Shown: positions 1 through 7,463 of the stretch, piece by piece | Numbering within the stretch: the stretch's first letter is position 1 | Layout of the letters: each line of letters begins with the position of its first letter | Source of the DNA: an uncultured delta proteobacterium | Lineage (GTDB): Bacteria > Desulfobacterota > Desulfobaccia > Desulfobaccales > 0-14-0-80-60-11 | Assembly (NCBI GenBank): GCA_963709285.1 | Contig: CAVPVR010000009.1 | Span: forward strand, 272,333 to 336,332 | Length of the DNA stretch: 64,000 nucleotides | Direction of reading: 5' to 3' | Program-made: the position numbers and the translations under genes | Notes under the pieces: model-generated | What the model saw: only the letters and a program-made list of their open reading frames with translations | Told to the model about the DNA's origin: nothing | Database searches by the model: none

Positions 1-148
1 AATACCCGATGCGGATTTGGTCTTTTTCTGGGGAAAAACTTTGGGCTTCGGTCGCCACTGTGGCAAAGACCGGAAAAATTATCAGAAAGCTCATGAACAC
101 CGAGGGTAAAAATCGATTAATTTTCGTCATCGGGTTTCTTCGCCTCAT
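1..148 (-). CDS. PhnD/SsuA-like periplasmic binding protein paralog, N-terminal part only (runs off the window)
   Basis: Not in the ORF track. Manual translation gives MRRRNPMTKINRFLPSVFMSFLIIFPVFATVATEAQSFSPEKDQIRIGY: a signal peptide followed by IRIGY, matching SISIGY/LNAGY/FRGGY of the neighbouring paralogs. It starts 6 nt after the stop of the upstream paralog. Confidence 0.65.
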   Translation of the reverse strand, partial: MRRRNPMTKINRFLPSVFMSFLIIFPVFATVATEAQSFSPEKDQIRIGY

Positions 149-154
149 AAGCTT

Positions 155-1090
155 TCATCGTTTTTGGGATATTTTGGGGGCTAGTTTTAAGGAATCATAA
201 AATGGTTCCACGGACCGTAAATATGCTGGCTTGAACTTGACTAACTTGTCGTATTTCAACAGGGTGAGAATTTGTCTCCCCTGGGGATGGGTGTGGAGCT
301 CAGCCAAGCTTTTCGAGACTGACCGCTTGAGTTTGTCACTGTATTCTTGGCGAAAGGCGAGAATCCCCCGCAGAATCGGGGGGGATTGGGCGATAACCAC
401 GAGGTCTTTGCCGATTTGCGGATTGAGCTCGACCACCGTCTGAAAAACGCGGCGCATCACCAGGCAGGCATCCTTCTTTTTGAAAAACACCGGCAGGATG
501 GCCTGGGAGGGTTTCTCCACTGATTTGGCGGTCTGAAATAACCGCTGGTACGGAGGCAATCCTTGTTCCCTCAGCAGGCTGTTGAGCCATAATATGTGAG
601 TGGCTAGAGGAGTTATTTCTTGATGAATGAGTATGTTGCGGTTCTTGAGTTGTTTAACCCTGGAGATACCGGCATCCCGATGCACCAACAGGAGATATTC
701 ATCCCCTATGAGATTATGATAGGAGGGCACAAAAACCGGCTCCAGAGACACCAGATCTTTGATCTTGAGATAATACGAAGACGACAGAATGACCAGGTCC
801 AATTCCTTTTGTTGGAGAGCCTGAGTTATGCCCAATTCGTCAGGATAAATGGTTACCTTGGTAGCCAAGGGAGTTTCCCCGTCATTAGACACTTGTCTTG
901 TCCATATTTCCAAAGCGGCCTGGGCGTCCTTGATATCCACGTCAGTGAAGGCTACCCGCGGGTAACCGGCGTTCAGGGTGGCTGGGGGCGAGGAGGGCTC
1001 CGCGTGCCCAGGCCCTACCGCCAGGCCCATCAAGCAAAGTGCTGCCACAACTGCCAGCAGATACCAAGGTATGCGGCTCGGAAAACTCAT
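155..1090 (-). CDS. PhnD/SsuA/transferrin-family periplasmic substrate-binding protein (paralog 1)
   Basis: Signal peptide from the ATG at 1090. Motifs DxxDAQAALEIW, EYLLLV, SQAILPVFF, ELNPQIG and GRQILTL are shared with three other copies in the window. Confidence 0.8.
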   Translation of the reverse strand: MSFPSRIPWYLLAVVAALCLMGLAVGPGHAEPSSPPATLNAGYPRVAFTDVDIKDAQAALEIWTRQVSNDGETPLATKVTIYPDELGITQALQQKELDLVILSSSYYLKIKDLVSLEPVFVPSYHNLIGDEYLLLVHRDAGISRVKQLKNRNILIHQEITPLATHILWLNSLLREQGLPPYQRLFQTAKSVEKPSQAILPVFFKKKDACLVMRRVFQTVVELNPQIGKDLVVIAQSPPILRGILAFRQEYSDKLKRSVSKSLAELHTHPQGRQILTLLKYDKLVKFKPAYLRSVEPFYDSLKLAPKISQKR

Positions 1091-1306
1091 GGGGTTAATA
1101 TCCCAGCACAACTCCCCAAGTAGGCTAACTGTTACATTTCCTTCTCTCTGAAGTTCCATGGAAAAGAACTTCAACCTTGCTCAGGAAAATAGATAAATTG
1201 CCATCATGATTGATGATGATATGCATTTTGTAGAGAAAGTATAAACACCATAGATTTTAAATCATCAGACCCCTCTCAAGATATTGACCAATTGTTTGAA
1301 TAAAGT

Positions 1307-4987: not shown

Positions 4988-5326
4988 CAGACAACCTCCT
5001 CCAAAGCGCTGGCTCTCTCCTTCTTTTCTTGACTCCGAGAACCAACCAGAATAACGAATAACTTTTCATATAATCGGGCACATCTAAAAAAACTTGAGAC
5101 ACTCCGAAGCCTCATAATTAGGGCAATGGGGTGGGGAATTCTGAGAAAAACTCCGAGAGGGATCTGCAGGATGAAGTGTTGCTAGATTTTACCGTTGATT
5201 TATCTAACCCCAGGAGATCTGAAAGACCCCCCAAGTCTCAAGAAAGGAAACGGAATGCCGATGGAAAAGGTAGGCAAGAAGGAGAGGTACTCCCTCGCTC
5301 TCATGGAGCGGCGGTGGGATTGAATT

Positions 5327-6361
5327 ATGGAATCTAATAAACTCCGGGCGCAGCTTTTTTCCCAGAAAATACGCCTCATCTCGGGAGATGCAAGGATAGG
5401 AGACCAGGAGTTTTATCCCATCTCCATGAGGGCGTTGCTGCCAGGAAGATTGACTTTCACCTTATATATAAAAACTATCGAAGGGAGGGCTCTTAAGGTC
5501 AAATATCTTCCCTATTGTGAAGAGGAGGAGATGTTTCAGGAGATTTGGCTGACAAGATTACAGGAAAGAGGAATTACCCAACTCTATTTTCGACATGAGG
5601 ACCTGGAGAAAGTAATAGCTCATTTTAATAACATCTTGCTGCTCTTGGAGAATGAACCGCCCGAAGGTGCTCGGAAGAAGATGATGGTTTTCTGCGAGCA
5701 TTTAAATCTTAACATCCGGCGAGCCATGGTGTTTCCCGTGTCAGATCCTCACTTGAAGCAAGCTAATTGGCATGTGGACTGGCTCATCAATCAATTAGGA
5801 AAAGGTTTGTTACCTTACCACAACTTGTGGGAAACGCTCTTTAATGATTACAGCATATATAACCACGCCATAAATGTTTTTTTGGTTTCTACAGCATTCA
5901 TGGTTTTTCTCGGGAAAAAATATGCAGGCTGTCGGGCCTTAGCGATTGCCGCGCTTTTTCATGACATTGGCTTAGTCAAGATCCCTTCTGACATTCTCTA
6001 TAAGACGAGTCCCCTGACGCCCGAGGAATGCCGAGAGGTCCAGAAACATCCAGAAATTGCTGTTGATATGCTTCAGGAGTGTTCTGAGATATCACCCGAA
6101 TCTTTGCGCCTTATTTGGGAGCATCATGAAAATGCCGACGGTTCCGGTTATCCCCAAGGACTGGGAATTAGTGAACAGCATGAATTCACCCCTCTTTTGC
6201 GTCTCATAGATGCTTATGATGCCTTAATTTGTCAAAGACCTTATCGCCCCGCGCAGAGTCCTTTCCAAGCTTTGAAAATCCTCCAGCAGCAATGGGGACC
6301 GCATGGCCCCGTACTTAATCGTCAATTATTAAAAAAGTTTATAGAGTTTATGGCATTGTGA
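5327..6361 (+). CDS. HD-GYP domain protein (putative c-di-GMP phosphodiesterase)
   Basis: HDIG, KHP, HHENADGSGYPQGL and DAYDAL..RPYR motifs. Confidence 0.9.
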   Translation: MESNKLRAQLFSQKIRLISGDARIGDQEFYPISMRALLPGRLTFTLYIKTIEGRALKVKYLPYCEEEEMFQEIWLTRLQERGITQLYFRHEDLEKVIAHFNNILLLLENEPPEGARKKMMVFCEHLNLNIRRAMVFPVSDPHLKQANWHVDWLINQLGKGLLPYHNLWETLFNDYSIYNHAINVFLVSTAFMVFLGKKYAGCRALAIAALFHDIGLVKIPSDILYKTSPLTPEECREVQKHPEIAVDMLQECSEISPESLRLIWEHHENADGSGYPQGLGISEQHEFTPLLRLIDAYDALICQRPYRPAQSPFQALKILQQQWGPHGPVLNRQLLKKFIEFMAL

Positions 6362-6530
6362 GAACGTTACTTTAGCTTGTCTGGGGTCCCCTCAAAAAGA
6401 TTAAGTTTTGGAGAATCATGACGATTAAGAAAGATAGCCCGGCCTACCGGGAATTTCTCTAAATAATTCTCCATAATCTTGGGGTGATTGCTGCTGCGTG
6501 CTTAACCTAAACTGATCGGCAAGAAGGTCG

Positions 6531-7463
6531 ATGAAAGCTTATGTCCGTATCACTATTCTAGTAATTTTTATCTTTAATATTTTTGTTGTTGCACCTTTTG
6601 CGAGGTGTGAACAAGACCAGATCGAAAATATAACGTACGGTATGTTGGGAACTTTATTCAACAACATAAATCTCAAAGATGCTCAAGTAGCTATGGAAGT
6701 GTGGGTAAACGAATTAAGTAAAGTTGCAAGGATATCAGCAAAATCATCAAAGACCATCGTTTTTTCTGAACTGCCTGATTTAATAAACGCAGTAAGAAAC
6801 AAGCAAGTCGACCTGGTAGGGATACCTTCCCTGCATTTTTTGCAAATAAAGGATAAGATTCCTTTAGAGCCTGCTCTGGCCTATTCAATTAACGATCACG
6901 TCGGTACCGAATATGTTTTAATAGTTCCCAAGGACAAGGAATACCACGGGTTGAGCGGCTTGAAAAACAAGAAAATCCTTATCCATAAACACGATGACGC
7001 AGGCCTCATCCCTGTTTTGTGGCTGAATTCCCTCCTGCGCCAACAAGGTCTTCCTCCTGCTGACCGTTTTTGTGCAAGTATCAAGAAGGTGGATCTACCC
7101 TCCCAAGCTGTTTTACCCGTATTTTTCCAGCAGGCGGACTGCTGTGTAGTTAGCAGTGATGGTTTTGAGATAGTAAAAGAATTAAATCCACAATTAGGGG
7201 AAAAGCTGGTGATCGTGGACAGATCGCCCTTCCTGTTGGTAGGCTTATTGGCCTATCGCCGGGATCTTCCGGCGAACCTTAAAAAAGAAATAAAGGAAGT
7301 TGCCGTCAACCTGGCATCATATCCTAGGGGGAAACAAATCCTCACCCTTTTTAAAATCGGGGCCTTCCGTCCTTTCCAATCTTCAGATTTTGATCCTTTG
7401 CTGGAGTTGATTAAAGATAATAAGCCATTACTGTCCGTGAGTAAGAGCAAAAGCCGTCATTAA
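6531..7463 (+). CDS. PhnD-like periplasmic substrate-binding protein (paralog 4)
   Basis: Signal peptide; DAQVAMEVW, EYVLIV, SQAVLPVFFQQAD, ELNPQLG, GKQILTLFK. Confidence 0.8.
   Translation: MKAYVRITILVIFIFNIFVVAPFARCEQDQIENITYGMLGTLFNNINLKDAQVAMEVWVNELSKVARISAKSSKTIVFSELPDLINAVRNKQVDLVGIPSLHFLQIKDKIPLEPALAYSINDHVGTEYVLIVPKDKEYHGLSGLKNKKILIHKHDDAGLIPVLWLNSLLRQQGLPPADRFCASIKKVDLPSQAVLPVFFQQADCCVVSSDGFEIVKELNPQLGEKLVIVDRSPFLLVGLLAYRRDLPANLKKEIKEVAVNLASYPRGKQILTLFKIGAFRPFQSSDFDPLLELIKDNKPLLSVSKSKSRH

Follow-up and report, generated by a model that had tools for sequence, protein, structure and literature searches.

A TolC-family protein, PhnD-type binding proteins and a hybrid histidine kinase form a widespread operon that looks like an envelope sensing device

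This report concerns a group of genes at the left end of a 64,000-nucleotide stretch of DNA from an uncultured delta proteobacterium of the Desulfobacterota (assembly GCA_963709285.1, contig CAVPVR010000009.1; G000:C9:272333-336332 in our numbering, hereafter the window). Genes for periplasmic binding proteins of the PhnD type lie there beside a gene for a TolC-family outer-membrane protein and, just outside the window, a gene for a hybrid histidine kinase. The operon formed by these three parts is widespread and apparently undescribed, and it looks like an envelope sensing device rather than a nutrient importer. We believe, with a probability of roughly 0.6, that it performs two-component sensing that depends on the binding proteins and is served by a dedicated outer-membrane partner. 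No account of the cassette was found in a search of the openly available full-text literature.

An earlier reading made from the letters alone (hereafter the sequence-only reading) had described five PhnD-type paralogs together with a TolC gene and an HD-GYP gene, and the listing of open reading frames (ORFs) and Pfam place all seven where it had put them. The core operon, on the minus strand, begins with the TolC-family gene (window 2259-3809; two OEP repeats, 168.1 bits) and continues through three binding-protein genes, which we label SBP-C (1307-2221; PF12974, 68.9 bits), SBP-B (155-1090; a periplasmic protein with a signal peptide, 76.6 bits) and SBP-A (77.7 bits), to the hybrid histidine kinase and a REC-HisKA-HATPase-REC kinase, the last two being left of the window. 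SBP-A, the binding protein that adjoins the kinase gene, also extends left beyond the window, which holds its N-terminal 49 codons (1-148, minus strand); the whole gene (G000:C9:271539-272480, or L003:17540-18481) encodes 313 amino acids. Two divergent paralogs complete the set. SBP-D (4080-4987, minus strand) is frameshifted in the assembly and matches PF12974 in pieces of 28.3 and 31.7 bits, and SBP-E (6531-7463, plus strand; 84.2 bits) lies downstream of the gene for an HD-GYP phosphodiesterase that is predicted to be cytoplasmic (5327-6361, plus strand; HD_5, 87.8 bits). Thus, the PF12974 gathering cut-off of 27 bits is passed by the four intact paralogs (68.9-84.2 bits) and by both pieces of SBP-D. 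The motifs DAQxAxxxW/Y, SQAxLPVxF, ELNPQ and G(R/K)QILTL, to which the sequence-only reading had drawn attention, were found in all four window copies, and the block SQAILPVFF...ELNPQ is the most conserved stretch of a 109-member alignment of the binding proteins. Each intact binding protein, and likewise the TolC protein, has a single hydrophobic segment at its N-terminus; all of these proteins carry signal peptides. The genome holds no members of the subfamily other than these five copies.

Looking to the left of the window for sensor genes, as had been advised, reveals the hybrid histidine kinase directly after SBP-A. Its gene (C9:268571-271396, minus strand) starts 142 nt downstream of SBP-A and encodes 941 residues, with two membrane segments (residues 22-52 and 184-211) that enclose a periplasmic domain of about 140 residues and are followed by HAMP, HisKA, HATPase, REC and Hpt domains. 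This arrangement fits the unorthodox layout of the BarA/GacS/TorS type, a likeness in architecture that is no evidence of orthology. The REC-HisKA-HATPase-REC protein follows 6 nt on, and after it come a Cache-type chemoreceptor and a single REC protein. The periplasmic sensor domain has no paralog in the genome. Of 46 members, 21 matched sCache_3_2 weakly, with a best E of 5e-6 and no score that reached the cut-off. At E <= 0.001 the domain finds only 515 relatives in a set of 1.84 billion representative proteins, and among the 150 best matches listed it mostly lies within the first 200 residues. Invariant motifs among 20 closer members are His-Cys, DGFSL and YS..WG. The invariant His-Cys pair, at about kinase residues 89-90 (L003:16828-17247) and present in 20 cassette kinases, includes the sole cysteine of the domain in the protein of this genome, and might bind a metal or a covalent ligand or serve as a redox site.

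A profile of four paralogs, run against a collection with one genome per species, yielded 57 loci, and a tabulation of gene neighbours of the kind that the sequence-only reading had proposed revealed a strongly recurrent linkage of the family to a specific TolC subfamily and to signalling genes. A binding-protein ORF was recovered in 54 of these loci, in arrays of one to seven. Of the 57 loci, 45 have the TolC subfamily immediately upstream of the array (128-902 bits), and 46 have immediately downstream of it a match to the kinase N-terminus, represented by its first 260 residues (69-420 bits); most of the TolC and kinase misses lie at contig ends. The same association emerges when the search starts from either of the other parts. 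When the periplasmic domain of the kinase was used as the seed (an alignment of a 20-sequence subset, with the best 80 of 152 relatives followed), 54 independent loci had more than 3 kb to the left, and a binding protein lay directly upstream in 47 of them, the TolC subfamily in 44 and both in 43. The best 80 of 281 TolC relatives gave 31 independent loci in which 6 kb or more was available on the right, and binding proteins plus kinase accompany TolC in all except one, a locus of Desulfosarcina variabilis with neither partner. These counts rely on bit thresholds of our own choosing (80-120 for binding proteins, 100 for TolC and 35-60 for the sensor), and duplicate contigs between scans were removed by hand from record names. 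Taken over the scans seeded with the binding protein and the kinase, all three parts occur together in 84 distinct loci carrying at least 13 phylum labels, among them Thermodesulfobacteriota, Nitrospirota, Ignavibacteriota, Acidobacteriota and Verrucomicrobiota; an Actinomycetota label is probably a binning error. Four of the records are not labelled as metagenome-assembled genomes, namely Malonomonas rubra DSM 5091, Desulfoluna limicola ASN36, Desulfopila sp. IMCC35006 and Paludibaculum fermentans T20B24. The genes are tightly packed, with median gaps of 4 nt from TolC to binding protein and 6 nt from binding protein to kinase, figures that depend on a crude ORF picker of our own and on uncertain start codons.

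The binding-protein family is rare and patchy, and so is the distribution of the cassette among relatives of this bacterium. Of 400 other genomes sampled from the phylum, 3 encode proteins like SBP-E (E <= 1e-20), a scan seeded with SBP-E alone found one distant locus only, and the sensor domain is matched in 4 of the 30 closest relatives at E <= 1e-5, two of these matches being strong and both from the same genus. Where the cassette does occur, the distances among its parts are correlated. Over 33 loci the Mantel correlation is r = 0.81 for TolC with the sensor, 0.58 for the binding protein with the sensor and 0.59 for TolC with the binding protein, and for each of the three none of 2000 permutations gave a value as high. 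On average the TolC proteins are 41% identical, the sensors 38% and the binding proteins 25%. These figures show that the three parts travel together, with the binding proteins changing most rapidly.

The TolC protein, the binding protein and the kinase sensor each belong to a specific subfamily, with joint inheritance across many phyla. The genome has about eight OEP genes, and the window protein scores no more than 51 bits against the others, versus 128-902 bits against the cassette TolC proteins of other phyla. It remains below the cut-offs of the TolC and NodT subfamily models TIGR01844 (116.6 versus 225 bits) and TIGR01845 (88.6 versus 210 bits), and among proteins of solved structure it matches TolC proteins best, at 46 bits. 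The stretch that separates the first two strands of the barrel comprises 91 residues in the window protein; judged by TolC topology it probably forms a long surface loop, at about residues 107-165. In 40 cassette TolC proteins it ranges from 54 to 133 residues and reaches at least 74 in 36 of them, compared with 58-68 residues in three other OEP proteins of the genome. Its flanks, PNFIFP and PEQN(I/V)KLMD, are conserved, and its middle is variable and rich in proline.

TolC-family proteins are ordinarily treated as exit ducts that require an adaptor and a pump. The sequence-only reading had stated that the window contains no gene for an ABC transporter, a membrane fusion protein (MFP) or an RND pump, and this fits our ORF scans (Pfam over 1-13 kb, and NCBIfam for 46 ORFs of at least 110 amino acids over 13-64 kb), although an MFP gene and a split RND gene do lie 8-12 kb to the left. 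Among the related loci, Pfam scans of 250 neighbouring ORFs (120 at E <= 1e-5 and 130 at E <= 1e-9) found no ABC permease or ATPase, HlyD-type adaptor or RND pump beside the cassettes; the 21 ORFs picked in loci L056-L060 lay outside these scans, except one in L060. Only L045 departs from this, with a MacB-like gene on the opposite strand. Probes made from the RND and MFP proteins of this genome matched in none of 76 TolC-seeded loci, the MFP probe being a single sequence and weak. In this 92%-complete genome no PhnE-type permease reaches the cut-off (best TIGR01097 match 42 bits, versus 216.7), and the binding proteins score 29.5-42.7 bits against the PhnD equivalog TIGR03431, for which the cut-off is 261. 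A role other than import, as had been suggested, is thus upheld by the lack of PhnE at the cut-off in the genome and of any conserved ABC, MFP or RND gene beside the family. The binding proteins are not importer subunits.

The MFP gene and the RND gene, the latter in three ORFs, are on the opposite strand 8-12 kb left of the window start, and no OEP gene of their own is nearby. An RND/MFP pair just upstream had been named as a finding that would refute the sequence-only reading, and at this distance such a pair is formally present. However, it is not conserved, even in the same-genus relative G405: that genome carries a cassette locus (L006) and no close copy of the neighbouring RND gene, the best match being 32% identical and on another contig.

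When the family profile is compared with solved structures, ArrX, which senses arsenate together with ArrS, is the best match (E 4e-19), followed by BstB/MCA1014 (2.7e-12), PtxB, AioX (1.4e-5) and PhnD (2e-5). AioX, ArxX and ArrX constitute a sensing, non-transport subfamily, and Tyr88, Cys106, Tyr131, Ser161, Ser163, His192 and Asp210 are given for the pocket, in AioX numbering (PMC5908839). When the family profile is aligned with ArrX, the Ser-x-Ser loop falls in a highly variable stretch that differs in all five paralogs, the pocket histidine is aligned with a conserved serine, and the pocket aspartate falls in a variable column. The arrangement for sensing is therefore shared, but the ligand chemistry probably is not. 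Apart from the cassette, the genome has one other PF12974 gene (L139:6341-7276, 215 bits), and it sits in an AioXSR-like cluster (L139, G000:C10:399001-412000, at 476-9394) together with genes for a PAS/sigma-54 activator (4910-6292) and a histidine kinase with sCache_3_2 and PAS domains (7286-9394); a TauE-like exporter and a molybdopterin oxidoreductase (476-2566) are encoded nearby, and this cluster may be an oxyanion-respiration sensing unit. A weak PF12974 match at C9:355279-355818 was set aside as an unrelated SBP_bac_3-PAS sensor.

The cassette resembles several known systems and is identical to none of them. The genes for AioX, ArxX and ArrX, which belong to three-component systems for arsenic sensing (PMC5908839, PMC8050422), likewise place a PF12974 binding protein with a sensing role beside a membrane kinase with an sCache-like domain, and adjacency of this kind was found in 46 of 57 and 47 of 54 cassette loci. 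The cassette differs in having a dedicated TolC protein, one to seven binding proteins instead of one, and a separate small family of sensor domains. Furthermore, neither the window nor the related loci scanned have an arsenic molybdoenzyme with its response regulator, and no molybdoenzyme or sigma-54 regulator adjoins the cassette. In TorT-TorS and LuxP-LuxQ a binding protein also reports to a sensor kinase, and TorS presumably shares the unorthodox hybrid architecture of the cassette kinase. The GltB-GtrS system of Pseudomonas (PMC8050422) combines a binding protein that reports to a kinase with a gene for an outer-membrane channel, OprB, in the regulated operon. However, GltB also serves an ABC importer, OprB is a porin and not a TolC-family protein, and the binding proteins of all three of these systems belong to families other than that of the cassette. 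A PhnD-fold domain is the input of the kinases TtrS and ThsS (PMC5408782), where it is fused, whereas in the cassette it is a separate protein in multiple copies; our scan for fused forms of the binding protein over 589 amino acids found none at E <= 1e-10, which is weak evidence. With tripartite efflux and type 1 secretion systems the cassette shares an OEP-family protein with both repeats, but the cassettes scanned are without an MFP or pump gene and the TolC protein has an enlarged first loop segment. Finally, NspS-MbaA offers the precedent of an orphan binding protein used for signalling, and cyclic di-GMP is a frequent output in the related loci, although the receiver in the cassette is a histidine kinase and the HD-GYP protein of the window is cytoplasmic.

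The sequence-only reading had connected the binding proteins with cyclic di-GMP signalling. This is not supported for the HD-GYP enzyme of the window, the more probable signalling partner being the hybrid histidine kinase just outside it, but such a link recurs in other loci through the genes that follow the kinase. REC-(PAS)-GGDEF-EAL or GGDEF-EAL genes stand there in 10 loci (L004, L007, L008, L015, L028, L037, L038, L040, L045 and L055), and L060 has a REC-DUF3369-HD-GYP response regulator. Elsewhere the kinase is followed by a REC-PAS-kinase (at least eight loci), by a lone REC protein (three) or, in several others, by nothing obvious, and in this genome and L006 by the REC-kinase-REC protein. 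Other neighbours are particular to groups of loci. In the Geobacter-type loci L010, L016, L022 and L024 a divergent nitrogenase-like gene (Oxidored_nitro, 918-980 amino acids) precedes the cassette, joined in L016, L022 and L024 by a gene for a small single-domain Hpt protein, and in L022 and L024 the genes after the kinase encode a rubrerythrin and a GNAT/HATPase protein; these neighbours may reflect lineage synteny or may hint at a regulated target. In L018 (17994-20628) and L032 (13896-17417) the cassette adjoins a second module dependent on a periplasmic protein, a YfiR/HmsC-like DUF4154 protein whose partner is a TonB-dependent receptor in L018 and a CHASE8 hybrid kinase in L032.

The HD-GYP gene itself is a local addition that lies outside the conserved cassette. 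By its HD_5 score and motifs the product is predicted to belong to the cyclic di-GMP phosphodiesterase family, with the motif HHExxDGxGYP intact and an alignment to the protein of PDB entry 4mcw (60.7 bits). Its N-terminal portion of about 170 residues matched no Pfam family, and it has neither a hydrophobic 19-residue segment nor a REC domain. Lacking such a segment, it cannot meet periplasmic proteins as NspS is met by MbaA, which we take to be a membrane protein with a periplasmic domain. HD-GYP genes occur in 2 of the 57 related loci. L006 contains the TolC gene, three binding proteins and both kinases, and has neither an HD-GYP gene nor a counterpart of SBP-D or SBP-E. Base composition follows a similar division, with GC fractions of 0.399 for SBP-D, 0.443 for the HD-GYP gene and 0.417 for SBP-E, versus 0.493 for SBP-A, 0.512 for SBP-B, 0.518 for the hybrid kinase, 0.545 for the TolC gene and about 0.57 for the whole genome. 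The idea that the whole cassette is foreign was rejected, since GC is clearly low only in these three genes and in SBP-C (0.447). SBP-D, the HD-GYP gene and SBP-E would together be a later low-GC addition particular to this lineage.

The array of binding proteins is still changing, in agreement with the view of the sequence-only reading that it is expanded and diversified. In a FastTree phylogeny of 116 binding proteins, SBP-B is the ortholog of the binding protein at position 1 of L006 (67% identity) and SBP-A of that at position 3 (62%). SBP-B and its ortholog pair together with SBP-C as their sister, and SBP-C is therefore a recent duplicate of the SBP-B lineage. SBP-D and SBP-E are on long branches without close kin, and the closest relative of SBP-E other than itself is 71% identical. 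Contigs of related strains join position 1012 to position 2259 with 113 other letters between and therefore are without SBP-C, from which it follows that the array is still gaining members. SBP-D is present as two overlapping ORFs (4256-4987 and 4080-4355), and the shift of frame falls in a minus-strand run of seven T (4377-4383). Contigs of runs X3 and X4, which represent related strains from two other metagenome samples and are 90-97% identical to the window, have one extra base in this run, which brings the halves into frame and lets the conserved motif of the family continue across the junction. At least three other genes of the same assembly are also split, among them the RND pump (three ORFs, L003:7316-10471, plus strand) and the acetyl-CoA synthase alpha/beta gene (two overlapping ORFs, window 18303-20535, minus strand), and a methionine gamma-lyase-like ORF (window 50860-51546, plus strand) covers only the first quarter of its family models, all of which suggests homopolymer errors in this assembly. 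Given that the related contigs read through and that other genes are split, the break in SBP-D is as likely to be an assembly error as a sign of a pseudogene.

We propose that the binding proteins would be ligand receptors and that, by analogy with AioX/ArrX and AioS/ArrS, they would dock in their loaded form on the periplasmic domain of the kinase. Docking would switch a phosphorelay that in other loci would end in REC-GGDEF-EAL proteins or in further kinases. The kinase and the TolC protein would thus be a conserved chassis, and the binding proteins its fast-evolving, duplicating and interchangeable inputs. The TolC protein might most plausibly give the cue access to the periplasm near the receptors, or remove it, and this is the least-supported step of the proposal. 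In broad terms, the receptor array put forward by the sequence-only reading survives in its non-import role, its linkage to TolC and signalling genes and its diversification, but not in the choice of the HD-GYP enzyme as partner.

Several observations weigh against the sensing proposal. The most conserved partner, TolC, is not explained by it, because known binding-protein-dependent kinases need no outer-membrane factor; indeed, we know of none that has one of its own. In this genome the TolC protein could also serve the MFP-RND pair. Neither partner is nearby in 6 of the 54 kinase-seeded loci, and these six have no common alternative neighbour. No response regulator with a DNA-binding or cyclic di-GMP output follows the kinases in this genome, the anion pocket of AioX and ArrX appears not to be kept, and the distance correlations among the three parts can be produced by shared descent alone.

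Other readings of the same data have to be weighed against the sensing proposal. It is conceivable, if unlikely, that the parts build a trans-envelope signalling machine for which a TolC-family protein has been recruited. The enlarged and in part conserved surface loop would then capture or admit an external cue and pass it to binding proteins docked at the periplasmic tip of TolC, and these would engage the sensor domain of the kinase. Such a machine would be comparable to the TonB-dependent transducers in offering an outside-in path, but would be assembled from a TolC channel, PhnD-fold receptors and a histidine kinase; on a rough estimate, the lengths of a TolC barrel, a binding protein and an sCache domain would together be on the order of the width of the periplasm. 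A device for export or trafficking, in which binding proteins carry hydrophobic or metal cargo to TolC and the kinase is only a regulator, seems to us quite unlikely. Carriers of this kind do exist, since BstB carries sterols and CusF feeds CusCBA. BstB, the second-best solved relative of the family (E 2.7e-12) and the source of weak NCBIfam matches to it, belongs to PF12974 and functions independently of an ABC importer (PMC10942540), and the TolC family is otherwise known as an exit duct, with the cassette TolC almost never found apart from binding proteins. Against export, the cassettes examined neither contain nor adjoin an energised inner-membrane component of the RND, ABC, MFS or MFP kind, the BstB scores are 20-30 bits versus a family cut-off of 350, and the partner most tightly co-inherited with TolC is the kinase sensor. 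The first two of these points sit badly with a kinase that merely regulates an export pump, and for the third a shared sensing machine is the better explanation.

The two remaining readings are less favoured still. Control of the HD-GYP phosphodiesterase by the binding proteins, whether in the manner of NspS/MbaA or as a dedicated input, is suggested by the position of the gene among the paralogs and directly upstream of SBP-E, by its intact motif, and by the frequency of cyclic di-GMP enzymes, one REC-HD-GYP gene included, as cassette outputs elsewhere. We nevertheless judge it very unlikely, given that a protein with no membrane segment and no REC domain has no periplasmic contact and no known route by which to receive a phosphoryl group, that its gene is confined to the 2 of 57 loci and missing from L006, and that the segment has a GC fraction of 0.40-0.44 where the core genes, SBP-C excepted, have 0.49-0.55. 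Finally, the proteins might simply serve, as orphans, an ABC importer whose other genes lie elsewhere, and might adjoin the TolC and kinase genes by chance, as their PF12974 membership and the annotation of their relatives as ABC-type phosphate/phosphonate transport substrate-binding proteins would imply. The three-way linkage in 84 loci of many phyla, the lack of a PhnE-type permease in the 92%-complete genome and PhnD scores of 30-43 bits against 261 make this scarcely credible and all but refute it.

The rest of the window (13-64 kb) contains genes for CO dehydrogenase/acetyl-CoA synthase, central metabolism and polysaccharide export. A Wood-Ljungdahl cluster (15874-23729, minus strand) comprises a methyltransferase, the gamma and delta subunits of the corrinoid protein, acetyl-CoA synthase and the catalytic subunit of CO dehydrogenase. 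At 59400-64000 (plus strand) are exopolysaccharide export genes of the PEP-CTERM/Eps type, including an outer-membrane protein, an EpsE-like exporter and a chain-length-determinant tyrosine kinase, that run off the end of the window. Nearer the cassette, a B12-binding radical SAM protein with DUF4070 (9115-10614, plus strand) and a 535-amino-acid protein (11561-13168, plus strand) are encoded, the latter beginning with an AAA_22 ATPase domain and having a long C-terminal half that is uncharacterised. An Rfam search of window positions 1-9000 found no cyclic di-GMP riboswitch and only a sub-threshold match to the cspA thermoregulator RNA (7931-8005, plus strand; 28 bits versus a cut-off of 78). 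The match lies about 270 nt upstream of the gene for a small RRM-type RNA-binding protein (8277-8603, plus strand) and may be a cold-responsive leader.

What distinguishes the cassette is a TolC subfamily that is almost never found apart from binding proteins and a single type of sensor kinase, and that has no pump beside it. If the sensing proposal is true, it would represent a new role for the TolC fold, and the operon would be a natural example of a fixed signalling chassis that is supplied with rapidly duplicating receptor modules. The existence of cultured carriers makes the cassette accessible to experimental tests.

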